In this document: positions 10,903 through 47,072 of the stretch, piece after piece | Layout: every line of letters starts with the position of its first letter | How positions within the stretch are numbered: the stretch's first letter is position 1 | From: a virus | Taxonomy: Duplodnaviria; Heunggongvirae; Uroviricota; Caudoviricetes | IMG/VR virus record: IMGVR_UViG_3300033069_001204 | Span: 1-64,000 of that record | DNA length: 64,000 nucleotides | Strand: one strand, 5' to 3' | Position numbers and translations under genes: made by a program | Notes under the pieces: generated by a model | Told to the model about the DNA's origin: nothing | The model's input: the letters and a program-made list of their open reading frames with translations, nothing else | Databases searched by the model: none

Positions 10903-11157
10903 TCATGCCTCCTTTTTCTGGACTGATTTGATGTCGAGCATGCTTAACGTCCTGAGCAGGTGGAGGCCTATGCTGCCATACCTCTTCAGGACTTCGGACT
11001 CCAGGCATTCCACAGAGCAGTCCAGGAAGACCAGGAACCTCTCCAAGTGAAAGCCATTCGCCACTGAGAAGTCATCGAGATTCGCTTTGAAGGTCTGCTG
11101 GAATGCGTCCTTGTGCAGCCTGGCCCTTCTACGATACTCCATCATCACTCTGTCCAT
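10903..11157 (-). CDS. hypothetical protein
   Basis: 84-aa ORF. Confidence 0.4.
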   Translation of the reverse strand: MDRVMMEYRRRARLHKDAFQQTFKANLDDFSVANGFHLERFLVFLDCSVECLESEVLKRYGSIGLHLLRTLSMLDIKSVQKKEA

Positions 11158-12068
11158 TTGCCCCTCTTATTGTTTGAGATTGTGGGTTTCCTGAATCCAA
11201 GTTCGCGCATCATCCCCCTGGCCACATCATCCGACATGCTGCCGGAATCCTTGACGCCGAACTGCGATGGCAGAATCAATTCTGTCTTTCCAGGGAATCC
11301 GGAAAGCATCTCGGCAAGGGACCATGCCCGCATCTGCGCGCTCTCCTCATTATCGAATAGAATATATCTACGTTCCAACCTGGCCAACCGGCCAACCTGC
11401 TTTGGGGTCACCTCGGTCCCGCATGAACACACGCTGCCATATCCAAGACGCCAGACATCCGCCGGACCTTCCACCACGACAGCCATGTCATCTTTAAGGA
11501 AGTCCTCGCCATACAGGCAGTCCTTGATTGGAATGCCGCCTTCGATGTCCGGAGACGATGAGACATAGCGGCGCTCATGGCCGTCCATGCAGAGCCTCGA
11601 CTGGAATGCCACCACCTTGCCCATCCTGGTGACCGGGATGAATATTCCCATCTTGTGGCGGCCAATGTTTGTGAAGGCTTCCAGATTCCAAAAAGCGACA
11701 AGGCTGTCGGAGGAATAGCCCCGGCTCTCCAAATAGTCGCGATGCATCCTCTTCAAAGGGGTCCTCTTTGGAATACGTAGGGGCTTGTATGCCCGGGATT
11801 CCGCCGAACCCTCCCTGGATATGGAAGACGGCCTGAACCGCTTCAACAACTCCACGGCCTGCGAAGGGGACAGCCCTCCCAATTCCAGAAGGACCGAATA
11901 CAGCGAATGGCTGCCGCATCTCCAGCAGGTGCAGACCCCGCTGGTCATATTGATGCCAAGGTGGTCCGACCGGTCATCGCAGAATGGGCAGCGCATATTG
12001 CTCCACCCATTTCTTGGAGCCGGCAATCTCAGGCCGCTCTCTGTGAATATTTCCAATACCCACGCCAT
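11145..12068 (-). CDS. DnaG-like DNA primase (CHC2 zinc finger + TOPRIM)
   Basis: 307 aa. CPFCDD...CWRCG zinc-binding motif. VVVEGPADVW fits the TOPRIM E-G-x-x-D motif; DxD acidic residues follow. Confidence 0.7.
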   Translation of the reverse strand: MAWVLEIFTESGLRLPAPRNGWSNMRCPFCDDRSDHLGINMTSGVCTCWRCGSHSLYSVLLELGGLSPSQAVELLKRFRPSSISREGSAESRAYKPLRIPKRTPLKRMHRDYLESRGYSSDSLVAFWNLEAFTNIGRHKMGIFIPVTRMGKVVAFQSRLCMDGHERRYVSSSPDIEGGIPIKDCLYGEDFLKDDMAVVVEGPADVWRLGYGSVCSCGTEVTPKQVGRLARLERRYILFDNEESAQMRAWSLAEMLSGFPGKTELILPSQFGVKDSGSMSDDVARGMMRELGFRKPTISNNKRGKWTE

Positions 12069-13702: not shown

Positions 13703-14317
13703 TCAGCCCCCTACAAATCGGGTGATGTCCTTGAAGGCTCTGGTGCATTTCCTACAGCACCAGCCTTTTTTCATAAGCATCTTCCTGATGCATCCCCGAA
13801 TTTCCTTCTTGCTCATGCGCCCCGAGATGCCGAGGATTTCCGCAGGGGTCCCGAGCACCAGCGCGATGACCTCTCGCGTCTCATCTCCGAGCATCGCGAC
13901 GCGGTCATGGAAGTCCATTGAGATCTCATAGGGCGGCTGTCCCTCGTCCACCGCCTCCACTTCCGATCTGCGTTCCCCCTTCCATTTCCGGATATAGTCC
14001 GACATCTCTTTATTGAGCTTTAAGAATAGCAGGGTCCGGAATGATCCGGCATCCGGATTCCAACGCTTCAAGGCATCCATGAAAATTGAATTGCCTATGG
14101 AGTGGAGCTCGGATAGATCAAAAGAATAGGCACGGTGGAAATGTTCCGCCCGATTGTATATTATGCCAGCGTTCTCTGAGTAGAGTCTACAGGCGGTTGA
14201 CATGGATAAACCTCTCATAATAACACCACAGTTCAATAATGGCAGGGTCCTGCGCTTCGGCAGCCTGGTCATCATCGATGGTTGGTTGAATGCTCGTATA
14301 CGGGCCAACATTGGCAT
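13703..14317 (-). CDS. sigma-70-family RNA polymerase sigma factor (regions 2 and 4); true start probably an internal Met near 14203-14218
   Basis: IYNRAEHFHRAYSFDLSELHSIGNSIFMDALKRWNPDAGSFRTLLFLKLNKEMSDYIRKWK resembles region 2.1-2.4. C-terminal REVIALVLGTPAEILGISGRMSKKEIRGCIRK is a region-4 HTH. Confidence 0.55.
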   Translation of the reverse strand: MPMLARIRAFNQPSMMTRLPKRRTLPLLNCGVIMRGLSMSTACRLYSENAGIIYNRAEHFHRAYSFDLSELHSIGNSIFMDALKRWNPDAGSFRTLLFLKLNKEMSDYIRKWKGERRSEVEAVDEGQPPYEISMDFHDRVAMLGDETREVIALVLGTPAEILGISGRMSKKEIRGCIRKMLMKKGWCCRKCTRAFKDITRFVGG

Positions 14318-15677: not shown

Positions 15678-15730
15678 AATGAATCTCCCTCCATTCAATT
15701 ATATTTCATTTTCGGAAAATTCCACCTCCT

Positions 15731-16180
15731 TTAAATGGATTTTCTTAAAATTTTTCCAGGCCAGACGTATTCCAAATCTGGAGGCTCCACCCAACCATAG
15801 CGACTATAGAACGCCGGATCTTTACGAAGAAGATTTGAGCGGTAGCTGGCATGGTATTCAGCATTCCCAAGCCATGACGGCGTGTCGATACGCATTCCAC
15901 GATCCAGCAAAGCATCCTGCTTATCCATGAAAAAGTCCAAGAGAGAATCACGAAATCCCCGCAACCTCCACTCAGCGCATATCCAGATGGCGTATTCGCA
16001 TAGGCTGGCCTCGTATCCTTTCCATTGGAGGACGGCGGGATGGCTCGACCACCCTCTCCGTCCTTCAGATAGAAGCGCTTGAAGGATCTGCTTGCACTCC
16101 ACTCTTTGCTTTCCCAGCCTCTTGTAGTCTAGGCATCTCGCAGTCAGAGCGAAGCATGCATACGGCATGAACGTCTGCAT
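15731..16180 (-). CDS. putative pyrimidine-dimer DNA glycosylase (Pyr_excise / T4 endonuclease V superfamily-like)
   Basis: 149 aa. N-terminal MQTFMPYACFALTARCLDYKRLGKQRVECKQILQAL...HPAVLQW resembles the bacterial MRLWSLHPKYLDxKGLVALWREALLAQ...HPQL family pattern. Recalled from memory, not searched. Confidence 0.4.
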   Translation of the reverse strand: MQTFMPYACFALTARCLDYKRLGKQRVECKQILQALLSEGRRGWSSHPAVLQWKGYEASLCEYAIWICAEWRLRGFRDSLLDFFMDKQDALLDRGMRIDTPSWLGNAEYHASYRSNLLRKDPAFYSRYGWVEPPDLEYVWPGKILRKSI

Positions 16181-22230: not shown

Positions 22231-22787
22231 GACATCATCCTTTCTGTTTTGATGGATTCATGATCTTTTCCAACTCTCGTGAATAATGCGGTTCCTTCAT
22301 GACAATCGGCTCCAGGTCCGAATTCTGGGTGCCAGCTGAAGTATGAATGGTCTCCATAGGAAATAGACTCCAGCGCGTAGTCCCCATAGCTAGACAGCCA
22401 CTCCTCAATAAGATGACGATCCTCGGCCCACAGGCCGCCATCCACTCCATACTCCAGATACGATTGCGCCCAGTCCGGGATGTCTAGATTCCTGACGATC
22501 TTATGGTCGGGGTCGTCCTGCACATTGAATGCCATGTAGAAGATTAGGCCATCGTCTATGATGTGGAGCTCCGGGATGTCGCCTATTTCCAGATCCAGGA
22601 AGGCGCGCTCGAGCAGCAGGAGCAACTCCTCCTTGGCATACTCCACTACGTCATTGGCATCCCAAAGCTCATTGGCTTCGATTCTGACGACGCACTCACG
22701 CTCGATTTCCGGCTCAAGGCCTGGAAGGCTCGGCGACTTTTCGGGGACCGGACCCCGGACGAATATCAGATTCCTGACCCATTTCAT
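22227..22787 (-). CDS. hypothetical protein
   Basis: 186-aa ORF. Confidence 0.5.
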   Translation of the reverse strand: MKWVRNLIFVRGPVPEKSPSLPGLEPEIERECVVRIEANELWDANDVVEYAKEELLLLLERAFLDLEIGDIPELHIIDDGLIFYMAFNVQDDPDHKIVRNLDIPDWAQSYLEYGVDGGLWAEDRHLIEEWLSSYGDYALESISYGDHSYFSWHPEFGPGADCHEGTALFTRVGKDHESIKTERMMS

Positions 22788-23197
22788 TTCTTGGCCCTTT
22801 CATATCTGACGATGGCCTGGCGGATCATCTCTGAACATTCCCTGAATGACGACTCCATGTATTGCTGCGCATCAGGAAACTGGGCGTTGCTGGCTTGCAT
22901 TGCGGCCACATCCGCATTGATTGCGGACACCTCGGCGAATAGCAGCAACGCGGCATTTCCTGGATCTCCGGCAAGGGATGGCTGCGGCAGGCTAGGATCT
23001 TCAGGAGGCAGGAATCTCGATATGGCGGGCCGGACCCGCTGCACCCATACCGCCCCATTGATTCCTTTGGTCTTGCCGCTCAGCCAAAAGATGATGGTGC
23101 TATGAGCGAGGCCGAGGCTCTTGGCGAATTGGGTCAAATTGCCCTTGGCTTCGATGGCCTGCTGTATTGCCTTCTTGATTTGTGGGGTGATTCGCAT
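22784..23197 (-). CDS. HTH (XRE/Cro-like) DNA-binding protein
   Basis: 137 aa. NLTQFAKSLGLAHSTIIFWLSGKTKG fits the helix-turn-helix pattern. Confidence 0.5.
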   Translation of the reverse strand: MRITPQIKKAIQQAIEAKGNLTQFAKSLGLAHSTIIFWLSGKTKGINGAVWVQRVRPAISRFLPPEDPSLPQPSLAGDPGNAALLLFAEVSAINADVAAMQASNAQFPDAQQYMESSFRECSEMIRQAIVRYERAKK

Positions 23198-23998: not shown

Positions 23999-24079
23999 AA
24001 GGCCTCCTGTTTGTTGTCTGGAATTATACGACAGGCGGGGCTCCCATGCACCGGCCTGCCGCATTTATTTTCCGAAAAT

Positions 24080-24397
24080 TCAATAGCCGTTCACAATGGC
24101 CCATAGATTTTCGCGAGACTGCCAAGCATCGGGGTCTCGCATTGTCTTCACTTGCTCGGATATGGAGCGGCACTCATCGCAGAGCCTCTGATCCTTTTGC
24201 GGGGTCAGAGCCCTGCGTTTGCCGCATATTGAGCACTTCCCCCTGTCTCGTTTCGGTTTCATGTCCAGGCCTTTCAAATTGCCCAATAGAACCCATAGAA
24301 TAGCAGGGCGCATTCCGTCGCGAATAGGACCATTAGCAGAACATCCTTGGCGGTAATGCGGTCTGCATTGACATCGGCGACCAGCGCCTGTCTCCAT
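24080..24397 (-). CDS. small zinc-ribbon protein (likely MKPKRDRGKCSICGKRR...CDEC; real start internal)
   Basis: Two CxxC pairs. The ORF's N-terminal extension is doubtful. A separate ~44-aa membrane peptide (MPYRW...LLFYGFYWAI) probably lies at 24274..24408. Confidence 0.35.
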   Translation of the reverse strand: METGAGRRCQCRPHYRQGCSANGPIRDGMRPAILWVLLGNLKGLDMKPKRDRGKCSICGKRRALTPQKDQRLCDECRSISEQVKTMRDPDAWQSRENLWAIVNGY

Positions 24398-26234: not shown

Positions 26235-26471
26235 TCAGCTTTCATCCAGGTTCAGCTCGTCTACGACTTGCTGGGCTCCGGCATCATAGGCCGCCCGCAG
26301 CGCCTTTTCAATTTCCTGCTCCTCAAGCTCGAAGGTCCACGAGCAGCAGTTCGATTTTTTCGGATACAGGTCGATTCCAAGATGCTTCTTGGCGATGGCC
26401 TTGAGCGCCTTCTTGATTGTGGCGTCCTTCACCTTATCCTCCTGCTCAGCGTTATGGAACTGCAAAGACAT
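26235..26471 (-). CDS. hypothetical protein (start MSLQFHNAEQED)
   Basis: The C-terminal 78 aa of ORF 26235..26633 look protein-like; the upstream part overlaps the paralog gene. Confidence 0.4.
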   Translation of the reverse strand: MSLQFHNAEQEDKVKDATIKKALKAIAKKHLGIDLYPKKSNCCSWTFELEEQEIEKALRAAYDAGAQQVVDELNLDES

Positions 26472-26866
26472 GCCGATTTCGATCCGGGCTGCGGCGACCC
26501 GGATACGTGAAGCGGCGTGCGCTCCCAGAACACCCGGATGGGAAACACGAACTGGTATGGCACATATGTCCCTAAGCCATACCCTGCACAAGGATGTGAG
26601 ATCCAGCCTAGGAAGTCCGCATCGGCTTCCCATATCTCCGCCATGCCCTCCTTCGAGCAGGCCAGAGCTTCAGCCGCTTCAGCATCTGTGAAAGCATACA
26701 GGCCAGATCCGGCTATTGTCGGCTTCGTCGCAACTCCAGGCTCATATAGAAGCGACAGCTCGCCATCTCCTATGTAGGCGTTTCCTCCTCCGCCCCCCGG
26801 CTCACGTATTACACCCCAGCTGTAGAGCCGGCCGCCATAAGGTGTGACCGCCTTGTAGACTTTCAT
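26429..26866 (-). CDS. hypothetical protein, MKVYKAV paralog family
   Basis: 145 aa. Paralog of 27271..27684: LLYEPGVATKPTIAGSGLYAFTDAEAA versus LLYRPGVATKPVIPNSGLYAFTDRDAA. Both end with GLCSSIT. Confidence 0.55.
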   Translation of the reverse strand: MKVYKAVTPYGGRLYSWGVIREPGGGGGNAYIGDGELSLLYEPGVATKPTIAGSGLYAFTDAEAAEALACSKEGMAEIWEADADFLGWISHPCAGYGLGTYVPYQFVFPIRVFWERTPLHVSGSPQPGSKSACLCSSITLSRRIR

Positions 26867-27270: not shown

Positions 27271-27684
27271 TCAGGCCACCCTATGCTTAGGAGTTATTGA
27301 GCTGCAAAGGCCGGCGGATTCGGAACCCGAGCATTCCACCGGATAGAGCTCTAGCGGGGTTTCCGCCCAGAACTTGATGTGGTCGGCATGGCTGCATATC
27401 CATTGGGCTCCGGCGCGCGGGTGGCTGATATAGCCCAGGAACTCCGCCTCGCATTCCCAGACTTGCATGCATGGATACCTGTCTGAAAACGCAACTGCGG
27501 CATCCCTGTCCGTGAAGGCGTATAGGCCTGAATTGGGAATGACAGGCTTCGTCGCAACTCCAGGCCTGTAGAGCAGCGAAACAACGCCGTCCCCTAGCCC
27601 GGCAAGGCCTGCAGCATTTTTACAGGTCACGTTGAAGCTGTGGAGCTGGCTGCCCGATGCATACAAGACTTTGTAGACTTTCAT
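27271..27684 (-). CDS. hypothetical protein, MKVYKAV paralog family
   Basis: 137 aa; see 26429..26866. Confidence 0.55.
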   Translation of the reverse strand: MKVYKVLYASGSQLHSFNVTCKNAAGLAGLGDGVVSLLYRPGVATKPVIPNSGLYAFTDRDAAVAFSDRYPCMQVWECEAEFLGYISHPRAGAQWICSHADHIKFWAETPLELYPVECSGSESAGLCSSITPKHRVA

Positions 27685-27687
27685 TGT

Positions 27688-27876
27688 TCAGGCTCCTTTC
27701 ATGACCTCCGTGACATAGCCCTCGACCAGTTCCCAGTTCATGCCGATTGAGGCGTCGAAGCGGGCCTCCATCATGTCGAGAACCTGATTGGCCTGATCGG
27801 CATCCAGCGTGACTTCCAGGTTCTCCGCGGCCTGATGGACGTCCTCGATTGTCCAGTAGCATACCTTCCTGTCCAT
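27688..27876 (-). CDS. small acidic hypothetical protein
   Basis: 62-aa ORF. Confidence 0.35.
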   Translation of the reverse strand: MDRKVCYWTIEDVHQAAENLEVTLDADQANQVLDMMEARFDASIGMNWELVEGYVTEVMKGA

Positions 27877-27888
27877 GTCCTGATCTCC

Positions 27889-28305
27889 TTATTGAATTAT
27901 TCCGAATTCCATATAGCCGCGGATTCCCGTTATCATCTTGGCGAGGTCGGGATACTCCTTTTCCTGCTCTGGCACGAACTCGCCTTCCACTCTGTCAAAG
28001 AAGGCGCGGTTGCCTACGATCCGGGCTCCGCGCTCCGGCCCGAATACCATGACGTAGCCGGCGATGTCCAGCATTTCCAGGACTTCCCTATGCTTGATGA
28101 TGTCCTTGGCACCCTGACGAAAGCCCAGCTTGAAGCAGGTCGATCCGCGCAGGACGATGATGTCAGGATTCCCGGCCCTCCAGCCATTGGAGAAGCCCCG
28201 CTCGAATTCCAGGCGCTCGTCCTCGGTCAGCATAGGCTTTTTGCGGGCTAGGGCCTCAGAGGCTCTTGCGCTGGCCACGTCGAAGACGTCGTTGTTCGGA
28301 TTCAT
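27889..28305 (-). CDS. hypothetical protein (start MNPNNDVFDV; SD aagggaaggag)
   Basis: ORF 27889..28341 with an internal Met and a strong SD. Confidence 0.5.
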   Translation of the reverse strand: MNPNNDVFDVASARASEALARKKPMLTEDERLEFERGFSNGWRAGNPDIIVLRGSTCFKLGFRQGAKDIIKHREVLEMLDIAGYVMVFGPERGARIVGNRAFFDRVEGEFVPEQEKEYPDLAKMITGIRGYMEFGIIQ

Positions 28306-28341
28306 TTCCTGATCTCCTTCCCTTTGGTTGGGCATTCCCAT

Positions 28342-29692
28342 TATAAGCCTCTATTCACTTAGGCCCATAATGGGAATGGGCCGGAACTCCGGTATGGAGA
28401 ACCGGCCAGCTTCCCGTCTTCAATTTCCCGGACTTGGCGCCCTTCAGCTATTCGCCTATCGCGCTGGCTATTCGAATTCCTTGCGGCCCTTCGCTCCCTA
28501 GCTACCGCCGCCTATCCATTCGCATGCCCGGCAAAGCCCAGCCATTCCTATGATGGAGAATGGCCGTCCTTCACCTTCGTCTCGTTGACTATTGTCGTCC
28601 CGTCCAACCCCTTTATGGGAGCCTTGGCATCTGGAGCCCTTTAGCCCGAATAGGCCCTTGATTATTTAATTGGCCTATGGAATTCATCTCCAGCCCTTTT
28701 GCGGCTTCCCAATATTCGATTGGGGGATTTCCTCCTTGAGGGAATTCTGATTCCCTTGGATCTTTCAATGAGCACCGGAGCCTCTAGCGCTCCTTCAATG
28801 ATTCCATTATAGAATGGGATTGCAGAATAGGCAATAGCTTTTTCCGAAAATTTTCGGAAAATAATGGAGACCCTGGAATTGTCCCTGTGGAGCCTGCATC
28901 CCTGGGCGCAGGGTCGAGCCTAATGAGTCCTTAGAGTGGAGTCCTTAAGGCCAATATAGGCTCTTTTTCAGGGCCGGAATCCCAGGGATTCCCTATTCCT
29001 TATTATATAAAGGGAATTTCAGGGGCCAAAACCACGGCCATGGAATCCGGCCATTCCAGCAAAACACGAATCCCATGATGCCATAGGACTATGATATGGG
29101 GAATCCCATGATGTGGGAATACGGGCCATGCAATGCCAGACAGGGAATGACGCCATCCCTGGGAGCCGGGCCGGGCGGGGACGGGGATGGCCCTTATATG
29201 GGAAAGAGGGGAGGGGAGGCGGGACGGAATCCCAGGGGCCTGGGGGCCGGCCGGGCCGCGCGCCGGGGGAGGCTCCCCTCCTCGTGACATTCTCTCGTGA
29301 CATTCTCTCACGACATTCTTTCCATGGCATCAGGCCCATTCCCGGTCTCTTTCCATGGCATCAGGCCCATTCCCTATTCGCCATCCAATCCTCTCCCCTT
29401 ATGGCCTTCCCTATATGCCTTCATCATATCTTTCCCCACATATCCCTCCCATGCCTTTCCTCTATGGGAATATTATGGCCTTCCCTATATCTCTCCATTA
29501 TAATATATAGTTCTCCATATAGGCCTGTCTCCATATATCCATGGTCTCCCCTATTATATTCCCATAGCCATAGTCTCCGGATTTCTCCCCCCGGAAAATT
29601 ATGTCTTCCGTGACAGACATGAAAACCGGCTGTTGGTCTTTTCCTGTATTCCCTATATATTATCCTAGCCAAACCAATAAGGAGTCCATCCA
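28342..29692. promoter_or_regulatory. 1.35 kb non-coding divergent region packed with iterons and palindromes (candidate origin, pac site or regulatory switch)
   Basis: - Only compositionally biased short ORFs.
- Contains: an 8-bp inverted repeat at 28338-28374; a 20-bp perfect palindrome tttccgaaaattttcggaaa at 28841-28860; GGAATCCC(A) at 28976 (itself palindromic), 29068, 29101 and 29226; three tandem 13-bp units at 29283-29321; a 24-bp repeat ttccatggcatcaggcccattccc at 29320-29343 and 29351-29374; atggccttccctatat at 29401 and 29476; a G-run tract at 29160-29280.
- Plus-strand composition switches from C-rich to G-rich across it. Confidence 0.7.
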
Positions 29693-29965
29693 ATGTTCAG
29701 CAATCCGTTCCGTGTCCTTCTGAGGACAGCCCTTAGATTCTTCAGCGCTTCCGGCCTCCTCAACGGGGATAGGGTGCGCAGGACAGAGGATCTATGCAGC
29801 CGCCTTTGTAGATACGGAGATGTCGGATATTCCGAATATCGTGATGAGATCGGAATCGTCGAGCCGAATCCTGATTTTCCCCATGCTTTGGTGAATGTGC
29901 GCTGGATCGGGTCGGGGAAAGTGGATGTCATAAATCCGGAGAACCTTGAATTGGTGGAGCCATGA
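29693..29965 (+). CDS. hypothetical protein (SD aaggag)
   Basis: 90 aa. First gene of the rightward operon. Confidence 0.5.
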   Translation: MFSNPFRVLLRTALRFFSASGLLNGDRVRRTEDLCSRLCRYGDVGYSEYRDEIGIVEPNPDFPHALVNVRWIGSGKVDVINPENLELVEP

Positions 29966-30837
29966 ACATCCTCTACAGGCATCGCAGATTCGGACAACGG
30001 GCATTGCGGACAATCGGGCTGGCCAATGAGATCATTTCCGAGTATCAGGATCAAGGCTTCTCCCTGACCTTGCGCCAGCTCTATTATCAATTCGTGGCCA
30101 GGGGGCTCATTCCGAATTCCCAGCGGGAATACAAGAACCTGGGTTCCGTAGTGGACGATGCCCGCATGGCCGGCCTCATTGACTGGCTGGCCATAGAGGA
30201 TCGCACCAGGAATCTCAGGACCCTGCCTTGCTGGAAATCGCCAAAGGACATAATGTCCGCTGTCGTCGGCCAATACCGCACCGATCCCTGGCTTCTGCAG
30301 TCCAGCCATGTGGAGGTCTGGATTGAGAAGGATGCCCTTGTCGGAGTCATTGAACGCGTCTGCAATAAATGGCGGGTCCCCTTCTTCGCATGTCGCGGCT
30401 ACAACTCCCAGTCCGAACAATGGGCTGCCGGCCGTCGCATGCTGGACGCCTCTGTCGCCGGATATGAGCCCATTGTCCTGCATCTTGGCGATCATGATCC
30501 ATCCGGGATAGATATGACCAGGGACAATGAGGAGCGCCTGTCTTTATTTGCGGAGGGTCCGGTGGAGGTCCGGCGGCTCGCCCTGAACATCAATCAGGTC
30601 AGGAAGCATAATCCTCCTCCCAATCCCGCCAAGGAGACTGATTCGCGCTGCAGTTCCTATGTAAGCCGCTTTGGAAATTCAAGCTGGGAGCTGGATGCCT
30701 TGGATCCCAGAATAATAGAATCCCTGATTGATTCCGAGATACAGTCCATCATAAGTCCATCCAAGTGGAAGGAGGCCATGGCCAATGAGGAATCGGGACG
30801 GGATGCTCTAATTGCCGCTATGGAGGACATGGAATGA
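29962..30837 (+). CDS. compact Spo11/topoisomerase VI subunit A-like protein (CAP/wHTH with a YY motif + TOPRIM)
   Basis: 291 aa. SLTLRQLYYQFVARGLIPN is like the catalytic-tyrosine region RxxYY of Top6A/Spo11. VEVWIEKDALVGVI supplies the TOPRIM Glu (EKD). LHLGDHDPSGIDM matches the TOPRIM DxDxxG motif of Top6A (DADPYGIEI). Confidence 0.55.
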   Translation: MNILYRHRRFGQRALRTIGLANEIISEYQDQGFSLTLRQLYYQFVARGLIPNSQREYKNLGSVVDDARMAGLIDWLAIEDRTRNLRTLPCWKSPKDIMSAVVGQYRTDPWLLQSSHVEVWIEKDALVGVIERVCNKWRVPFFACRGYNSQSEQWAAGRRMLDASVAGYEPIVLHLGDHDPSGIDMTRDNEERLSLFAEGPVEVRRLALNINQVRKHNPPPNPAKETDSRCSSYVSRFGNSSWELDALDPRIIESLIDSEIQSIISPSKWKEAMANEESGRDALIAAMEDME

Positions 30838-31127
30838 TAGTCGTGGAATCGGGCTTTGTCACGATGACATGCCAGACAGTCCTTGAAGGAGGCCTCGGCC
30901 CTGAAGGCGAGTTGTTCTGTCGCCTTATGGATATCTCCGGAATTCTGGAGGTTGGCGGCGTATTCGATATCTGCTTCTATGAATCATGCCGCCTCATTAG
31001 CCGCAGGGTCAGCCCTGAGGATGCCGAGGTCCTCCGGAATATTCTGAAGTCCGGGAGGCCAATGACAATGAAAGGATACGACCATGGCATGCGTGATCAT
31101 ATGGGAATGTGGAAGCGAAACACATAA
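30834..31127 (+). CDS. hypothetical protein
   Basis: 97-aa ORF. Confidence 0.4.
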   Translation: MIVVESGFVTMTCQTVLEGGLGPEGELFCRLMDISGILEVGGVFDICFYESCRLISRRVSPEDAEVLRNILKSGRPMTMKGYDHGMRDHMGMWKRNT

Positions 31128-31256
31128 GTCAAGAGCAGACGCTGAATGCATTTCCAATAGAGGCCACATTAATCTCTCAAATGGAATTCAACGAAATATT
31201 GGAAATTCATTCAATGGAACATTATATTCTTGGAGAATATATAATGGAGAGGACTA

Positions 31257-31574
31257 ATGCGCATAACGATATCTAAAGATTTTACAGATGCTCCAGGAGG
31301 AAGATATATTAAAAATGGTGATTTTTCTGGAGAGTATTTTAGAGAAAAACATTTGGTTCCTGCATTTGACAGGCTCTCTAAAGGAGAAAAACTTATCGTA
31401 AATCTTGATGGTTGTTTTGGATTTGTGACAAGTTTCCTTGAGGAGGCCTTTGGAGGGCTTGCTAGGGAAAAAGGGACAAATGTCGTTCTAGAAAGAATTG
31501 AAATAGAAGATACTGAACAGCCAGAGCGCATAGAGTTGATCAAGTCGTATATTAAGAATGCAAATAACAAATGA
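31257..31574 (+). CDS. STAS-like (DUF4325-type) small protein in an AT-rich moron
   Basis: 105 aa. KLIVNLDGCFGFVTSFLEEAFGGL resembles the DUF4325/STAS pattern (xDFxGVxxISSSFxDEaFG). Local GC is much lower than the flanks. Confidence 0.4.
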   Translation: MRITISKDFTDAPGGRYIKNGDFSGEYFREKHLVPAFDRLSKGEKLIVNLDGCFGFVTSFLEEAFGGLAREKGTNVVLERIEIEDTEQPERIELIKSYIKNANNK

Positions 31575-31583
31575 AGGCTTTAA

Positions 31584-31829
31584 ATGTTAATGGCAATTGA
31601 ACTTATTAAATTGTTGGTGCAAATAGGCCTTGCGACTGCCATTTGTTATCTTGGATATAAACTTTCTGCTTTTAGAGCTGCAAATGAGAAGAAAATAGAG
31701 GTTTGCCTTAAGATTTATGATGAGCTCATATGTGCATTTAATAATGAAGAAGAATTTATAAGAAGTGCAGAAAAAACTGGCCGTAAAGATGAGGTTGTTA
31801 AGCTTGTATTCTCAGGGACAAGGCACTAG
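31584..31829 (+). CDS. small membrane protein (N-terminal TM helix) in the AT-rich moron
   Basis: 81 aa. LLVQIGLATAICYLGY is a hydrophobic helix. Co-directional with the STAS-like gene, 10 nt downstream of it. Confidence 0.45.
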   Translation: MLMAIELIKLLVQIGLATAICYLGYKLSAFRAANEKKIEVCLKIYDELICAFNNEEEFIRSAEKTGRKDEVVKLVFSGTRH

Positions 31830-31888
31830 AAACTTGGAATTACTGGCACGCAGCTGATACTCAAAAACATCAATAGGAGGACATCATA

Positions 31889-32137
31889 ATGGATTTCAGC
31901 GACGCGTTACTACATCTCAAAGCTGGAAGCAAGATTCGCAGAGAGGGATGGAATGGCAAAGGGATCTTCGTAGGAATGGCCGAACCCGGACCCAGCCCGG
32001 ATCTATTCACTGCTCGATGCCTATACATTGACACTACGGGGCTCCGGACCAAAAACAAGAAAGCCCCCAAGTGTCGGGTTCCATGGCTGCCAAGCCATAC
32101 GGATATTCTAGCGGAGGATTGGGAGCTGCTCAAATGA
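31889..32137 (+). CDS. DUF2829-family protein (Thoeris anti-defence Tad2-like)
   Basis: 82 aa. MDFSDALLHLKAGSKIRREGWNGKGIFVGM matches the DUF2829 N-terminal signature ALxxLKxGxKxxRxGWNGKGxF. SD aggagg. Confidence 0.5.
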   Translation: MDFSDALLHLKAGSKIRREGWNGKGIFVGMAEPGPSPDLFTARCLYIDTTGLRTKNKKAPKCRVPWLPSHTDILAEDWELLK

Positions 32138-32607: not shown

Positions 32608-33318
32608 GTGTGGAGCCTGCGGACGGAAAGTCAGAAGAATAGGAAACCAAGGAAGGCGCAGATGCCAAAACCTAAATTGAAGCTACAGCCATCCAAGCCC
32701 AAGGCCAAGCCCAGGACGGCGAAGGTCAAGGAGGCCGACGACATTGCCTTGGAGCCGGTCGTCCAGGCCTTCTTCGATAAGCTGCCGGCAAGCCATCAGG
32801 TCAAACCCTCCAGCATGCCTTTGGCTCTAGGCCCGGAGGGCGTGGACTCATGGCTTGCCGGCAGCCCCCAGAAGTTGAAGGATGCCTGCGACGCATACTT
32901 CGAGTCCGTGGATATGCGGAACCTCGCCTTCCAGGACAACAACCCGAAGGCCGAGACGAAGATACCATACACGCATCAAGGCCTATGTCTGTTCCTTGGC
33001 CTGCTCGATCGTTCCAATCTCATCACCCTCCTGAAGTCGGATCCCCATAAGCCGATCATGGCCACAGCCATTCTCCGCATCGAACAGGATATTGTGGAGG
33101 GGACGCTGATGGGAGCATTCAATCCCAAGATGTCCAGCATGTATCTCACGCAATGTCTGGCCTGGCTCGATGGCCGGGGTTCGAAAGGCGGCGGCCCGCG
33201 CTCCGTGGAAGGCTCTGGCGTCCAAATCAACTTCGTGAGTGTGGAGTCCCCGGAGGATTTGAAACGGCTCAATGAGGCCAGGAAGCAGCCCGTCCTTGAC
33301 GTGGGCCAGGAGGACTAG
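32608..33318 (+). CDS. putative terminase small subunit (alternative start ATG 32662, MPKPKLK, with SD aaggaagg)
   Basis: Basic N-terminus followed by a helical domain. Lies immediately upstream of, and nearly abutting, the TerL gene. Confidence 0.5.
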   Translation: MWSLRTESQKNRKPRKAQMPKPKLKLQPSKPKAKPRTAKVKEADDIALEPVVQAFFDKLPASHQVKPSSMPLALGPEGVDSWLAGSPQKLKDACDAYFESVDMRNLAFQDNNPKAETKIPYTHQGLCLFLGLLDRSNLITLLKSDPHKPIMATAILRIEQDIVEGTLMGAFNPKMSSMYLTQCLAWLDGRGSKGGGPRSVEGSGVQINFVSVESPEDLKRLNEARKQPVLDVGQED

Positions 33319-33321
33319 ACC

Positions 33322-34773
33322 ATGGGTTCCGGAACCATTATTCTAAATGTCCTGACGTCCAAAGTCTTCCGTAAGATAAAGGAGGCGGCCGGTCCCTATT
33401 TGACTGAGGAGGAACGCAACGCCAGGATAGCCAGGGGCGAGACGATGTCCGAAGTCCGACACATTGTGCTGTCTGGCTCCAGCCGCTCAACAAAGACCTA
33501 TAGCGCGCTGCAGTTCATAATAAGCTGTTGCCTTGCGAATCCCGGACTTCAATGCGCCATCATAAGGGCCAAGCTGACCTGGCTCCGCAAGACAGTCTTC
33601 AAGGATTTCGTCAAGATCATGCACATGGCAGGGCTCTGGGATCCCTCCAGGATGAACAGGTCCGAGTGGGAATACACTTTCGACAACGGCTCCCAGATCT
33701 CATTCATAGGAATGGACCAGGATGCCGGCTTCGCAAAGGTCCACGGCATGAAGACCGACCTGGCCTTCTATAATGAAATAACGGAGCTCAGCTATGACCA
33801 CGTCCGTCAGGTCGATATCCGAAATACCTGGCTCCAGATCTACGACTTCAACCCGAACTGTCCGGAGCGTTACTGGATCTATGAACGCATCCTGTCCCAG
33901 ACCGGGAAGGCCGTCCACATCCATTCTACATATAAGGACAATCCATTCCTGGAGCGTCGCGTCGTGGAGAGCATCGAAGCCTATGAGCCGACCCCTGCCA
34001 ACATAGCGAGAGGGACCGCCGACAAGACATTCTGGGATATCTATGGCCTGGGCGTCCGCGGCACCATCTCCGGGCTGGTGTTCACCAATTGGAGGATGGT
34101 CAAGGACCTGCCGGATAAGCTGGACAAGCCTGGATATGGAATGGACTTCGGATTCACAAACGACCCCACCACCTTGACATTCTGCGGGCAGACCCCCGGA
34201 GAGATCTGGGTGGATGAGCTCATATATGAACGGGACCTCGTCAATCTATGCGTGCCGAACAATCCGGGCATCCGAAGCATAGAGGGCGAGATGCTCAGGC
34301 TCAAGGTCAAGAAGACCCTGCCGATGTATTGCGAGTCGGCCGAACCCAAGACGGTCAGGGATATGCAGAATGCCGGCTTCAATGCCATTCCGGTCGTGAA
34401 GGGTCCGGGCAGCGTGGTGGCCGGCATCACAGGCATGAAGCGATTCAGGCTGAATGTCACGGAGCGTAGCATCCATATCATAGCCGAGCTCGGCAACTAT
34501 AAGTGGAAGGATCAGAAAGGGTCCCTAGGGGAGGCGTTCGTCAATGAGCCCGTGGACGCCTGGAACCATTGCCTGGACGGCATACGCTACTACGTGATGT
34601 CCTGCGAACCTGGAAGCTGCATGGTGGAGCAGGGCAGGACCGAGATGCTGCCAATAAGAGTGGGACGCGGAGTGGCCAGCCGCAAATATGACATGTATCA
34701 GGGTCCCGATAATGAAGAGGGACAGGAGGCCCATCGCAGATGGCTGGATGCCGTATCCCAGCGAAGTCAGTGA
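33322..34773 (+). CDS. terminase large subunit (ATPase + RNase H-like nuclease)
   Basis: 483 aa. Walker A VLSGSSRSTKTY; nuclease motifs GMDFGFTNDPTTL and DAWNHCLDGIRYYV. Confidence 0.9.
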   Translation: MGSGTIILNVLTSKVFRKIKEAAGPYLTEEERNARIARGETMSEVRHIVLSGSSRSTKTYSALQFIISCCLANPGLQCAIIRAKLTWLRKTVFKDFVKIMHMAGLWDPSRMNRSEWEYTFDNGSQISFIGMDQDAGFAKVHGMKTDLAFYNEITELSYDHVRQVDIRNTWLQIYDFNPNCPERYWIYERILSQTGKAVHIHSTYKDNPFLERRVVESIEAYEPTPANIARGTADKTFWDIYGLGVRGTISGLVFTNWRMVKDLPDKLDKPGYGMDFGFTNDPTTLTFCGQTPGEIWVDELIYERDLVNLCVPNNPGIRSIEGEMLRLKVKKTLPMYCESAEPKTVRDMQNAGFNAIPVVKGPGSVVAGITGMKRFRLNVTERSIHIIAELGNYKWKDQKGSLGEAFVNEPVDAWNHCLDGIRYYVMSCEPGSCMVEQGRTEMLPIRVGRGVASRKYDMYQGPDNEEGQEAHRRWLDAVSQRSQ

Positions 34774-43883: not shown

Positions 43884-46800
43884 TCAAAGCTCCGCTGTTA
43901 AGTCTATATATGTTGTGGCATCCAAAGTGGAAAAATAGAAATTGCCTGCTGCTGTAACTGTCGCATAGATATTAACTGAATTGTCTCCAGTAGTTCCTAC
44001 TGAGGGTTGGCCGCAATTACTTACACTCCAAGTTCCTGTTTTAGTCGCAGTAGGAGCTGCTCGCATCTTAGGAAACGCCATTGAAAAGCCAGATATTCCT
44101 GAAGATGATCCATAGCCTCTTAACCAAACATTAGCCAGACGATTAAAATACCGCCTACATTGTTGCGTATCTATGTCGGGATCGCATGGTATGAATTGCG
44201 TCGCGGTCTGGCCTTTCTCCAGCTTGACATTTGCTACGTAGAAAGTATTGGACGTCGAGTCCATGGCGTTGACTTGATTTGCAGTTCCATAAATTGCCGC
44301 TGCAGCAGTTGTCCAGGCATCGAGTGTGGATGTCTGGAAGTTGCTGCCGCATGCCAGGACAAAATTGACTCGTAAAGATACTGTGTTGTCCGTAGAAAAT
44401 GTTGGGCCGGACACATCAAGCGTTACGGGGAATGAGAAATACGTCCAAGTATTGGCGTCCGTTATCTCGCATTCATGCACAAAACTATAGCTGTTTCCGA
44501 CGTCAGCTAGGACAGCACAATAGGTTCCTACTTTGGACGCCCGAAGCCAAAACGACAAGGTCACATAGCCACCAAGGAATGGAGATATAATTGTGCCCTC
44601 AATACGTTGCTGCACTCGATAGACATCTGTCGAGGCTATTGACGTGTCAGCAGTAGTCACGCTGACCTCAAGTGATGTGGTGGAGGATACTCTGGCTTCT
44701 GTATAAGATGGGACGGTGGTGCTTTGCGATAGCGTCACTAGTCCTGCCCCTACATATGTCCACTGCCAACAATCCAACGCATACTGGTTATTGGCTGTTA
44801 TGGCTGTGGAAGTCCCACGCTGGGCTATTCTAAAACTCCCGTTCCTCATGATATTGTCATTAATGACGGACAAGTCCAGCGGAGTGACATACTCTACAGC
44901 AGGGCGGTCGATGATCAATAATGTATTGGCGTCAAGAACTATGGCAATAGGCTTGAGATAGTGCCCCTCAGTCGTGGTTCCAGTCTCTGTCATATCTCCT
45001 GCAGACGTATCGGATACATACAGCACAGGACCCGTGAATCCATGGGACGTATAGGTGTAGCGGCCGATTGGGCAGAATACAAAATTATTGGCATCCACAA
45101 CAGAGGACACCAGACCCACAGACTCGACAGATTCTATGCTGTCGGCCTGCGCCAGCGCGTAGCTGCCATCTGCCAGTTTAGCCACAGCTTGATTGACAGA
45201 AAAACCATGGCTTGTGGAAGCGACTGCAACGGCTAAGGTATCCCCGCTTGCGCCTGCGTTATCGTCCACATACTTCTTGTTCGCCGCTTGATAGTCTGTA
45301 GTAGGCGCAGAACTTGGCGTGATGGGGAAGCTTGAGAACGTCTTGATGCCACCCACAGTCTCATCGCCGGAAGTAGCAACTGCGCCAGCTTGAGCCGCCG
45401 TTACGCTATGCGGATTCGATGTGCTGGAAATATGGTTTTGAATATTTGCATTAGCGGGTTCGTAGACGCCGCTATGCGTATGGTTTCCCGCTGCTGCTTG
45501 CGCTGAACCTGTCCCCAATGTATGATGTAGAGAGCTTGCGCTTGAATCAGTATCGGGACTCTCATGCGTGTTGGCTTGCACCAGCTTGTTCGAGCTATGG
45601 TCATGATCTAGCGGCGTCCTAGCGTCGCTGTTGCGGGAATCATTGTCAGTTACATATTTATTGGATGATGATGGCGTTCCGCTTGTCCCTGCCAATGCGG
45701 CTTTTTCATCGCTGCTTGGAATGTTGCCATGTGCATAAGTTGATTCATGCGTAGAGACGGCGCTGGAAGCTGCCCCGCTTGCATCTGCTCCAACATCGGA
45801 AGCAGATAATGTAATATCGCTGGAAAGAGCCTTACTATTGATTGTCCGTGTGCTTGGGACTATGCCGCCGTGGGCTGTCGTGGTGTAGCCCGTGTGGGTA
45901 TTGAGATTGCCTTGGACAGTGGCGGCGGCTCCGCTGGCGTCTGCGCCTACGTCGGAGTAGGTCAAAGCTATTCCATCGATCTTATAGCTCTGTCCGCTCG
46001 GGATATTGACAGAGCCTGAATCATCCGCAGTAACCAGGGAGTTCTGTATAAGCTTCCCTGTGGTGGAATCGAAGCGGACTATGGCATTATCAGTAGAAGA
46101 CGCAGGTCCGGAAACATCGCCTAATCCCGATACGGAATCGTCCACATACTTCTTTGTAGAAGCCTGATAGTCTGTAGTCGGAGTGGGGACCAGCGGAGAG
46201 CTGCTGAATGTCTTTATTCCAGCTATTGTCTCATTGCCGCTAGTAGCCACAGCCCCAACGTCAGATGCGGCTAATGTGATGTCGCTAGACAGAGCCTTGC
46301 TATTGACTGTGCGGCTAGTAGGGACCGCTCCAGCCTGCGCCGCTGTCACGCTATGTGGATTGCTTGTGTTGTTTATATGGGTGGTAAGATTGCTCTGGAC
46401 TGCGGAGGCCGCTCCAGCTGCGTCGAAGCTCGCGCTAGACAGACCGCCGTCCTTGATAAGCTTTCCTGTTATACCGTCGAATTGGACTAGGTTACCATCG
46501 GTGGAGTTTGCAGGTCCATACACGTCTCCGGTCCCTGCCGGCATATCGTAGCTGAAGTTGCCAGCACCGTCATTCTTAAGGTAGCCTACGGCATCTGCGA
46601 TATTGGCGACGTCGCCAGTTTTCTGGAAGACTGAAGAAACCGCTCCGCCATTTTCATCCACATACTTCTTTGTGGCCACCTGATAGTCAGTTGTTGGCGT
46701 AGGGACTATAGGAGAGCTAGAAAAGGTCTTTATGCCAGCAACGGTCTCATTGCCCGTTGTAGCCACTGCTCCAGCCTGCGCGGCAGTCACTTCATGCGGA

Positions 46801-47072
46801 TTGGCGACATCACTGAGGTGAATGGTCAGATTGGACTGGACGGTTGCTGCGGCTCCACTGACATCAAAACTAGATGGCGAGTATCCTGAGTCTTTTAGCG
46901 CTTTGCCAGTGGTCCCGCTGAAGGATACAAAGTTCCCATCTACGGAACTTGCCGGACCGATGACTGTTCCATTAGAGAGGCCTATCAGAGTGGTCTGGAT
47001 GACTGCCACAGGTCCCATCGAAGCAGACTGGATGACTGTGACTGGATTTAGAGTCATGGTGAGCTCAGGCAC
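43884..47072 (-). CDS. long tail fibre protein with three copies of the phage tail-fibre repeat
   Basis: 1062 aa. The repeat (V/L)TAAQAGAV(A/P)T-GNETVAGIKTFSSSPIVPTPTTDYQVATKKYVD occurs three times, each followed by DSG/GASG. Ser/Thr/Ala-rich. C-terminal globular domain. Confidence 0.8.
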   Translation of the reverse strand: MPELTMTLNPVTVIQSASMGPVAVIQTTLIGLSNGTVIGPASSVDGNFVSFSGTTGKALKDSGYSPSSFDVSGAAATVQSNLTIHLSDVANPHEVTAAQAGAVATTGNETVAGIKTFSSSPIVPTPTTDYQVATKKYVDENGGAVSSVFQKTGDVANIADAVGYLKNDGAGNFSYDMPAGTGDVYGPANSTDGNLVQFDGITGKLIKDGGLSSASFDAAGAASAVQSNLTTHINNTSNPHSVTAAQAGAVPTSRTVNSKALSSDITLAASDVGAVATSGNETIAGIKTFSSSPLVPTPTTDYQASTKKYVDDSVSGLGDVSGPASSTDNAIVRFDSTTGKLIQNSLVTADDSGSVNIPSGQSYKIDGIALTYSDVGADASGAAATVQGNLNTHTGYTTTAHGGIVPSTRTINSKALSSDITLSASDVGADASGAASSAVSTHESTYAHGNIPSSDEKAALAGTSGTPSSSNKYVTDNDSRNSDARTPLDHDHSSNKLVQANTHESPDTDSSASSLHHTLGTGSAQAAAGNHTHSGVYEPANANIQNHISSTSNPHSVTAAQAGAVATSGDETVGGIKTFSSFPITPSSAPTTDYQAANKKYVDDNAGASGDTLAVAVASTSHGFSVNQAVAKLADGSYALAQADSIESVESVGLVSSVVDANNFVFCPIGRYTYTSHGFTGPVLYVSDTSAGDMTETGTTTEGHYLKPIAIVLDANTLLIIDRPAVEYVTPLDLSVINDNIMRNGSFRIAQRGTSTAITANNQYALDCWQWTYVGAGLVTLSQSTTVPSYTEARVSSTTSLEVSVTTADTSIASTDVYRVQQRIEGTIISPFLGGYVTLSFWLRASKVGTYCAVLADVGNSYSFVHECEITDANTWTYFSFPVTLDVSGPTFSTDNTVSLRVNFVLACGSNFQTSTLDAWTTAAAAIYGTANQVNAMDSTSNTFYVANVKLEKGQTATQFIPCDPDIDTQQCRRYFNRLANVWLRGYGSSSGISGFSMAFPKMRAAPTATKTGTWSVSNCGQPSVGTTGDNSVNIYATVTAAGNFYFSTLDATTYIDLTAEL

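Follow-up and report, generated by a model that had tools for sequence, protein, structure and literature searches.

Large, repeat-rich control regions from which early and late genes diverge are known from c2-type and phi29-type phages. In c2, bIL67 and 923 (Ceduovirus) the replication origin is non-coding, lies between the divergent early and late gene blocks and is flanked by the first two early promoters; no open reading frame (ORF) or ribosome-binding site (RBS) follows the first promoter, and the region is highly variable, with subgroups that lack similarity to one another (PMC7150918). In phi29 the promoters A2c and A2b (early) and A3 (late) share one short switch region, the regulators being p4 and p6; repeated regulator sites overlap the promoters, repressing early and activating late transcription (PMC3100819). 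The phi29 early promoters also carry boxes for a host regulator, Spo0A (PMC2731898). A different arrangement is that of the lambda origin in gene O and of SPP1 oriL in gene 38, where repeats with dyads and an AT-rich element lie inside the gene preceding the helicase gene (PMC6316719). We have analysed a 64,000-nucleotide (nt) stretch of DNA from a virus of the Caudoviricetes (IMG/VR record IMGVR_UViG_3300033069_001204, positions 1 to 64,000; "the window"), a phage or prophage-like genome segment with a GC content of about 52–55%, taken from a JGI metagenome contig of 88,985 bp. At 28306–29692 it contains a 1.39-kb region ("the gap") that is non-coding, from which two gene blocks read away and in which repeats occur far beyond chance. 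On balance, and with moderate confidence, we think that the gap is probably a divergent early/late transcription-control region in which three tandem leftward promoters are gated by dyad operators.

The likeness to the c2-type region lies in the layout: the gap is non-coding between divergent blocks, two promoter-like sites (P_L2 and P_L1, described below) appear to bound it as the early promoters do, and no ORF or RBS is predicted downstream of them. It differs in having no sequence similarity to that region and in containing three candidate promoters, a block prone to form guanine quadruplexes (G4) and a purine/pyrimidine switch; a separate origin candidate of the lambda/SPP1 kind, beside the helicase gene of this phage, is a further difference. 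The c2 region is ~0.5 kb long and the gap is thus about 2–3 times longer. With phi29 the gap shares leftward early and rightward late blocks read from one non-coding region and regulator-like sites at the promoters, but the phi29 region spans ~0.2 kb and has four p4 sites of the form CTTTTT-15-AAAATG, to which the site sequences of the gap are unrelated. No homologue of p4 or p6 was found in this phage. At the left end of T7, promoters A1–A3 are followed by the R0.3 RNase III site before gene 0.3. There, as proposed for the gap, several strong, tandem host-type early promoters lie in non-coding DNA (~0.9 kb), with a long hairpin directly before the first early gene; the T7 region, however, is one-way and stands at the physical genome end beside the terminal repeat, whereas the gap is divergent and internal in its contig. 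The lambda/SPP1 arrangement is resembled by positions 3400–3640 of the window and not by the gap, which is outside the replication genes and has heterogeneous repeats. The current understanding of such regions therefore stands, and the gap is a sequence-unique instance of an expected kind of phage element, of interest mainly for the novelty of the phage and for a testable operator regulon.

The extent of the gap is as follows.

28306–29692, unstranded: the proposed control region as a whole, non-coding and bounded by the start codons of the leftward gene (28305) and of the rightward gene (29693)

A six-frame codon log-likelihood model, trained on 21 confident genes, gave no coding signal across 28300–29690; the flanking genes score +0.1 to +0.3 per codon and no frame is positive anywhere in the gap. 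The initial annotation had described the region as gene-free and as the longest non-coding stretch, and both descriptions are correct, the second across the whole window. Its left border of 28342 has to be moved to 28306, the leftward gene (138 amino acids (aa), minus strand, AGGAG RBS) starting at 28305. An ORF of 161/166 aa at 29113–29613, called as a gene by JGI at 29128–29613, has a negative codon score and is spurious; in a search of 5.8 billion proteins its sole match was itself. The single small ORF with a positive score (29498–29620, minus strand) was also rejected, having no Shine–Dalgarno (SD) sequence and four single-nucleotide differences that hit codon positions 1 or 2. The codon scores and the absence of homologues led us to reject a hidden gene. 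Searches of the gap gave no Rfam family at the gathering score, none at E ≤ 1, and no tRNA.

As expected of a divergent promoter-operator region of the phi29 or lambda PR/PRM type, the gene blocks on either side are transcribed apart. The minus-strand block (447 to 28305) encodes a DnaB-like helicase (883–2499), a primase (11145–12068), an SNF2 helicase, an ATP-dependent ligase, a methyltransferase, a weak sigma-like protein (13703–14317), a weakly supported helix-turn-helix protein (22784–23197) and many small orphan genes adjoining the gap. The plus-strand block, 29693 to about 39589, opens with a 90-aa orphan followed by a TopoVI-A-like protein. SD use in the window is strong (71% of genes against 22% by chance), which makes scanning for host-type promoters reasonable and argues against a Bacteroidota host. 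The best protein matches for host inference are at most 34–56% identical and spread over many phyla, and a sigma70/sigmaA-type consensus was assumed. Seven sigma70-like sites were found in 27800–30200 against 2.5 ± 1.5 expected, all on the minus strand, and the split inside the gap is 6:0 in the leftward direction; the rightward strand gave one weak consensus match of 8/12. The gap holds two of the five sites in the window that score at least 10/12 with a perfect TATAAT (P_L1 and P_L2), and a third site with a perfect TATAAT (P_L0, 9/12) came from a relaxed scan. These sites and the dyads beside them are listed from left to right.

28333–28378, unstranded: inverted repeat with 18-nt arms and 10-nt spacer, CATTCCCATTATAAGCCT / AGGCCCATAATGGGAATG; encloses P_L0; candidate operator
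28340–28367, minus strand: P_L0, promoter-like TGGGCC-16-TATAAT; predicted start ~28333, giving a 28-nt leader to the ATG at 28305; putative site from the relaxed scan, sequence verified
28379–28407, minus strand: second leader hairpin GGCCGGUUCUCCAUACCGGAGUUCCGGCC, adjoining the 28333–28378 repeat
28806–28834, minus strand: P_L1, promoter-like TTGCCT-17-TATAAT, 10/12; predicted start ~28799; AATCCC 4 nt upstream of the −10 box
28840–28861, unstranded: candidate site for a regulator, a perfect palindrome of 22 bp, TTTTCCGAAAATTTTCGGAAAA; it consists of two 11-bp TTTTCSGAAAA units and lies at about −41 to −62 of P_L1
28976–28992, unstranded: candidate operator, a 7-3-7 palindrome (GGAATCCCAGGGATTCC) situated at about +4 to +20 of P_L2
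29002–29029, minus strand: P_L2, promoter-like TTGGCC-16-TATAAT, 10/12; predicted start ~28995; ATTCCC 4 nt upstream of the −10 box
29633–29661, plus strand: weak promoter-like site TTGGTC-17-TATATT, 8/12, the sole rightward one; overlapped by ATTCCCTATAT at 29648–29658

Judged at the level of sequence, dyads thus lie at operator-like positions for all three of P_L0, P_L1 and P_L2. P_L2 and P_L1 are separated by 195 nt, and downstream of them no ORF has a coding signal or an SD sequence. The rightward site is followed by an AAGGAG RBS at 29679–29684 and then by the ATG at 29693. The inverted repeat at P_L0 had been noticed before and is confirmed, with arms at 28333–28350 and 28361–28378 (18 nt, 89% complementary). 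In RNA started at the upstream promoters it is predicted to form an 18-bp hairpin just 5′ of the RBS; the minus-strand fold of 28290–28430 has z = −4.8, and none of 200 shuffles was as stable. The palindrome beside P_L1, earlier taken to be 20 bp long, is real and perfect and measures 22 bp (28840–28861). It is the longest perfect palindrome in the 64 kb, the runners-up being 14 bp.

The unit of this palindrome recurs. TTTTCSGAAAA has four matches in the window against 0.00 expected, all of them intergenic and in the leftward block. The copies outside the gap are at 15709 and 24068. At 15707–15752 there are two sites 31 nt apart (15707/15738) that resemble CodY boxes, and a promoter-like GTGGAA-16-TATAAT sequence has the 15709 copy within its spacer; at 24065–24080, between two genes, 16 nt match the 22-bp palindrome exactly. 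We take this recurrence as the best evidence that at least one element of the gap may be a regulator site belonging to a small shared regulon. The CodY box consensus quoted for Firmicutes is AATTTTCWGAAAATT (in the accounts given in PMC5314169 and PMC9318921). Five sites have 2–3 mismatches to it (15707, 15738, 24066, 28838 and 28849), and the window contains 6 matches against 1.3 expected. On the other hand, the centre is S and not W at 15707, 24066, 28838 and 28849 (15738 has W), and a phage of 52–55% GC is atypical of low-GC Firmicutes. We do not assign the motif to CodY; it is no less likely that the phage itself encodes a regulator with a similar site. A search for such a regulator found the flanking proteins to be orphans with no family match, sequence searches of PDB gave no usable match, and AlphaFold2 models of the two flanking proteins had mean confidence scores (predicted local distance difference test, pLDDT) of 55 and 44.

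The word most strongly enriched in the gap, ATTCCC/GGGAAT (13 copies against 1.3 expected), was absent from the initial annotation. A −10 box follows 2–4 nt downstream of 4 of the 29 ATTCCC-type words in the gap and of 4 of the 223 elsewhere; the four pairings are with P_L1, P_L2, a weaker leftward site and the rightward site. Sites with at most 2 mismatches from ATTCCCTATAT are 24-fold denser in the gap than elsewhere, and TTCCCTAT, for which 0.08 copies are expected, has 5, all of them on the same strand. The degenerate ATTCCCWWTAT family comprises 11 sites in both orientations and with irregular spacing. GGAATCCC occurs 15 times in the window against 5.4 expected, 4 of them in the gap against 0.25 expected. 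These four exact copies, at 28976(+), 28985(−), 29100(+) and 29226(+), bear out the earlier report of a recurring word, with the correction that the copy listed at 29068 is GAATCCCA only (7/8).

Our functional statements are drawn from one sequence, and the following scheme is to be read in that light. In the left 720 nt (28306–29030), P_L2, P_L1 and P_L0 would be tandem host-type (sigma70/sigmaA-like) promoters firing leftward, their transcripts serving the small orphan genes, which are typical of phage early genes, and then the replication genes. Each would be gated by a dyad: GGAATCCCAGGGATTCC over the start of P_L2, TTTTCCGAAAATTTTCGGAAAA abutting the −35 box of P_L1, and the inverted repeat around P_L0. 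A regulator binding TTTTCSGAAAA would act also at 15709/15738 and at 24068, and so control a small regulon. Transcripts from P_L1 and P_L2 would have an untranslated leader of 0.5–0.7 kb ending in two stable hairpins before the first RBS; it is plausible that these hairpins are a processing or stabilising signal. The right 660 nt (29040–29692) appear to have no good host-type rightward promoter, so that the rightward operon (the 90-aa gene, the TopoVI-A-like gene, an anti-defence islet and terS/terL) is probably switched on later by a phage factor. Such a factor might bind the direct repeats and the ATTCCC-type sites upstream of the weak 29633–29661 promoter, and the G4-prone block and the easily melted AT-rich block could modulate the local DNA topology. 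A replication-origin function may overlap the control region.

The elements of the right half are as follows.

29068–29113, plus strand: GAATCCCATGATG in two exact copies at a distance of 33 nt; they overlap a weaker leftward promoter-like site (29119–29091, TTCCCA-17-TATCAT)
29140–29280, plus strand: purine/G-rich block, GC about 0.70, with two canonical G4 motifs and the most stable duplex of the gap
29281–29319, plus strand: three tandem 13-nt units CTCGTGACATTCT, with no other good copy in the window
29317–29374, plus strand: 27-nt direct repeat in two exact copies, TCTTTCCATGGCATCAGGCCCATTCCC, with a period of 31 nt or about 3 turns of the helix
29399–29502, plus strand: two 30-nt direct repeats at a distance of 74 nt, about 7 turns; 87% identical overall and fully so over the first 18 nt, TTATGGCCTTCCCTATAT
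29462–29567, unstranded: AT-rich, easily melted segment bracketed by a 15-nt inverted repeat (29462–29476 / 29553–29567)

Among ~310 overlapping 1.4-kb slices of the window the gap ranks first for coverage both by direct and by inverted repeats: exact direct repeats cover 171 nt (95th percentile 61) and inverted repeats 70 nt (95th percentile 39). Every repeat listed by the initial annotation was found again, with small changes of position or length. The three tandem 13-nt units are present, at 29281–29319, as is the ggccttccctatat repeat, 30 nt long and 87% identical at 29399 and 29473; the two repeats given as 24 bp are exact over 27 nt (29317–29343 and 29348–29374, period 31). To call them iterons was an overstatement, the families being unrelated and of 2–3 copies each (3 × 13 nt, 2 × 27, 2 × 30 and 2 × 13) rather than one array of initiator sites. 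The G tract had been thought compatible with quadruplex formation, and two of the three canonical G4 motifs predicted in the window (four runs of at least 3 G, with loops of 1–7 nt) do fall here, at 29161–29180 and 29200–29223, together with the highest G4Hunter score of the window (2.16) and its densest cluster of G-runs. The strand composition flips, as had been claimed, but does so twice and not once: the gap is C-rich at 28300–28700, G-rich at 28700–29300 and strongly C-rich at 29300–29600. There is a sharp switch at 29280 from the G-rich block to the most pyrimidine-rich DNA of the window, within which the 30-nt repeats sit, and both purine extremes of the window are in the gap (maximum 0.71 at 29173, minimum 0.21 at 29366). 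Within the AT-rich segment, 29462–29521 has a duplex free energy (dG) of −67.9, at the 99.94th percentile of instability in the window; the fold of the whole segment 29462–29567 has a z of only −1.8. A long purine/pyrimidine hairpin or cruciform at 29130–29470 was considered and rejected, as it folds no better than shuffles on either strand (z = −0.2 and +1.1).

Three other readings of the motifs were discarded. Promoters for a single-subunit RNA polymerase were suggested by ATATAGGGAA, which resembles the T7-type TATAGGGAGA; the motif does not occur outside the gap, and none of the window proteins scanned is a polymerase of this kind. Promoters for an extracytoplasmic-function (ECF) sigma factor, with GGGAAT as −35 box, have no conserved −10 box downstream. 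An 11-mer, CGGCCAGCTTC, present in five copies, has no common context and is a chance coding word.

Of the three interpretations offered by the initial annotation (a replication origin, a pac site next to terS, or a divergent early/late promoter and operator hub), the hub is the one we favour, given that the genes diverge, that leftward promoter-like sites are accompanied by dyads and that an operator motif recurs; the pac site fails as stated and the origin is possible only. Several observations weigh against the hub. The promoters and operators were called by consensus matching, with an assumed consensus, and the density of promoter-like sites (6 per 1.39 kb) ties with that of other slices of the window. 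A length of 1.39 kb exceeds what a control region needs: the scheme leaves the G4 block, the 13-nt tandem, the 27-nt repeats and 25 of the 29 sites of the ATTCCC type without an assigned role, and the ATTCCCWWTAT family is borderline, 1 of 30 composition-matched simulations having reached the observed 11 sites. The phage factor invoked for the rightward operon is hypothetical; the sigma-like call at 13703–14317 comes from PHROGs and is not backed by Pfam or PDB. The collections searched contain no homologous region, and hence none that could be compared for conservation. If the map is right, it provides testable promoters, operators and a small regulon for a lineage of mostly orphan proteins, and a starting point for studying the early/late switch and for finding the regulator of the 22-bp palindrome. 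It would also separate three signals that are often merged, placing control elements in the gap, an origin candidate upstream of the helicase gene and a pac candidate in terS.

The searches for relatives bear on all of these readings. The gap had no DNA match by blastn among 50,697 phage records. Seeded with the neighbouring TopoVI-A-like gene, scans found identities of up to 64% in viral contigs and 59% in metagenome contigs, without synteny or a DNA match; with TerL as seed, viral and genome contigs gave no more than 40% identity and neither synteny nor similar DNA. The flanking 138-aa gene had itself as sole match among the 5.8 billion proteins. The only relatives found were three near-identical contigs, L109 from sample SRR32380198 and L108 and L027 from one sample, JGI 3300020576. 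In the parts of the gap that they cover, L108 and L109 do not differ from the window (100% identity). Of the six differences between L027 and the window, four lie in 37 nt of the gap, 29562–29598 (C>A three times, A>C once). A segment between 16-nt inverted repeats (29002–29017 / 29648–29663) was considered as invertible and rejected, since L027 reads unbroken through the right arm. A chimeric or wrap-around assembly was likewise rejected: there is no long self-repeat, and the tetranucleotide signatures of the two arms are alike (r about 0.9), this common signature indicating that the contig is not a chimera. By the measure of these searches, the phage is extremely isolated. Its capsid protein is at most 34% identical to anything searched, it has been seen in only two or three samples, and its 138-aa, 518/540-aa, 821-aa and 1958-aa proteins have no family matches.

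The rival explanations and the control region are not all mutually exclusive. The most probable rival is a replication origin, alone or superimposed on the promoters, which we consider possible but rather doubtful. It could be of the iteron type, bound by a phage initiator, or of the c2 type, in which a non-coding transcript from the first early promoter would prime replication, aided by the R-loop- or G4-prone block and the AT-rich unwinding segment. The layout agrees with the published description of the c2 type, in which the first two early promoters mark off a non-coding region between divergent blocks and neither an ORF nor an RBS follows the first of them; the direct repeats have near-integral helical spacings (31, 33 and 74 nt), and a distance of 250 nt separates the 60-mer at 29462, which melts easily, from the most stable, G4-prone block. 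This layout is the part of the earlier origin claim that survives; independent support for it is lacking and a better-placed element exists elsewhere in the window, in the arrangement of lambda O and SPP1 gene 38.

3400–3640, minus strand: lambda/SPP1-like origin candidate, inside ORF 2474–4096 and directly upstream of the DnaB-like helicase gene

It contains tandem 34-nt units (3564–3597 and 3598–3631, 94% identical), each with a 23-nt palindrome CGAATTTGAAAATTTTAAATTCG; beside them are the least stable 60-nt duplex of the window (3427) and G-runs at 3480–3524. ORF 2474–4096 stays open across the repeats with a positive codon score, and since 34 is not a multiple of 3 the repeat would seem to be kept at the DNA level. 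An iteron origin is characterised by at least three copies of one 17–22-bp site, an adjacent AT-rich unwinding element and a location in or next to the initiator or helicase gene; the gap has the AT-rich element, but not the three copies, and it is the 3400–3640 site, not the gap, that has the location. The repeats of the gap are unrelated families of 2–3 copies that have no unit in common with the site at 3.5 kb, and the replication genes (helicase, 883–2499; primase, 11145–12068) are 16–27 kb away. The cumulative GC-skew minimum at 29764 is not independent evidence for an origin because the skew follows gene orientation, tracking the coding strand throughout the window, including the minus block at 48–60 kb. 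Distant-mode blastn against the 50,697 phage records gave no DNA similarity to the origins of c2, bIL67 and 923 or to any known phage origin, and a search for an initiator left the 518/540-aa protein an orphan in the 5.8 billion proteins, with one unannotated 34% homologue in an exhaustive HMMER scan. SPP1 has two origins about 13 kb apart (PMC6316719), so that a second one in the gap is conceivable. A more elaborate version, in which the gap combines a second, transcription-primed origin with CodY-like, host-nutrient-gated early promoters and two internal promoters, strikes us as very improbable. In it, an R-loop of the early transcript across the G4-prone purine block would open the adjacent AT-rich segment, and the contig ends at 29016–29037 could be a replication- or packaging-linked DNA end; if true, the phage would tie early transcription and the start of replication to the metabolic state of its host.

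Those contig ends raise, with low probability in our estimation, a further explanation, that a packaging signal or a physical genome end (cos, pac or a terminal-repeat boundary) is situated near 29016–29037. Contigs from two independent samples break here within a span of 21 nt: L109 stops at 29016 and L108 at 29033, and L027 begins at 29037 without overlap; the chance that an end from the second sample falls within ±20 nt of the first break is ~0.03 by our rough estimate. Long, repeat-rich non-coding DNA is also typical of phage termini, as in T7 and N4. Against this, the positions of the three ends are close but not the same, the contig of the window itself runs on through 29016–29037, and a strain-variant junction or a coverage hole would explain the breaks equally well (L108 is 100% and L027 99.84% identical to the window); the other ends of L027, L108 and L109 do not coincide either. 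A pac site next to terS, as had been proposed, does not describe the gap, for the start of terS, at 32608, is 2.9 kb away on the right with eight genes between, and terS has a palindrome of its own.

32781–32865, unstranded: inverted repeat in terS, 31-nt arms, 84% complementary, 23-nt spacer, in the 5′ third of the gene; DNA fold z −5.7

A P22 gp3-like TerS with a Terminase_3-type TerL fits headful packaging, and pac sites of the P22/SPP1 type lie in or at terS (PMC6316719); the palindrome at 32781–32865 is therefore a better candidate for the pac site than the gap. That the gap acts through RNA, as a structured leader, a small RNA or an anti-defence decoy such as a solitary-repeat anti-CRISPR (CRISPR, clustered regularly interspaced short palindromic repeats), is about as improbable as a packaging signal or genome end in it; RNA anti-CRISPRs of phages have been described (in the account of PMC10651486). 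The untranslated stretch of 0.5–0.7 kb downstream of P_L1 and P_L2, the strong hairpins at 28333–28407, the loosely mini-array-like sequence at 29399–29502 (30-nt repeat, 44-nt spacer, 30-nt repeat) and the anti-defence islet 1.5 kb away are consistent with this. The 30-nt repeats, however, are non-palindromic and spaced unlike CRISPR arrays, folding outside 28260–28420 is no better than in shuffles (as seen above for 29130–29470), Rfam gave nothing, and there are no homologues in which to look for covariation. Less probable still is that most of the gap has no function and is filler between two modules: the scar of a recombination, a mosaic joint or decayed DNA, with repeats made by slippage. 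It shows no conservation in the collections searched, the contigs break in it, it has attracted four of the six L027 differences, and its tetranucleotide signature differs from that of both arms (r about 0.5–0.6). Yet 1.4 kb of junk is rare in phage genomes, the perfect 22-bp palindrome with exact copies at two other intergenic sites argues for selection, the promoter-like sites are strand-biased, and L108 and L109 preserve their gap parts without change.

Returning to the control region that we favour, its surroundings present some further features. In the rightward operon, the second gene (29962–30837) encodes a lone TopoVI-A/Spo11-like protein (phrog_6247, E 3e-110), 56% identical to gp41 of Pseudanabaena phage Pam3, of a kind widespread among otherwise unrelated phages. 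A low-GC islet follows at 31100–31900 (GC 0.33–0.37 against ~0.54 around it), carrying a DUF4325 gene, and after it, at 31889–32137, a Tad2-like gene of the anti-Thoeris sponge family; an anti-defence islet has probably been acquired here, between the gap and the terminase genes, terS (32608–33318) and terL (33322–34773). On the other side of the gap, two small genes at 26429–26866 and 27271–27684 (145 and 137 aa) are paralogous, both products starting MKVYK, and their 72% DNA identity over 88 nt marks a local duplication. A second minus-strand block, 39598–63760, contains Mu-like capsid and protease genes and genes for large orphan proteins. It includes the gene for a 1062-aa BppL_N-containing protein, inside which, at 45259–46802, are three internal DNA repeats of ~120–160 nt that are 70–78% identical, which suggests a repeated domain of a baseplate or fibre protein.

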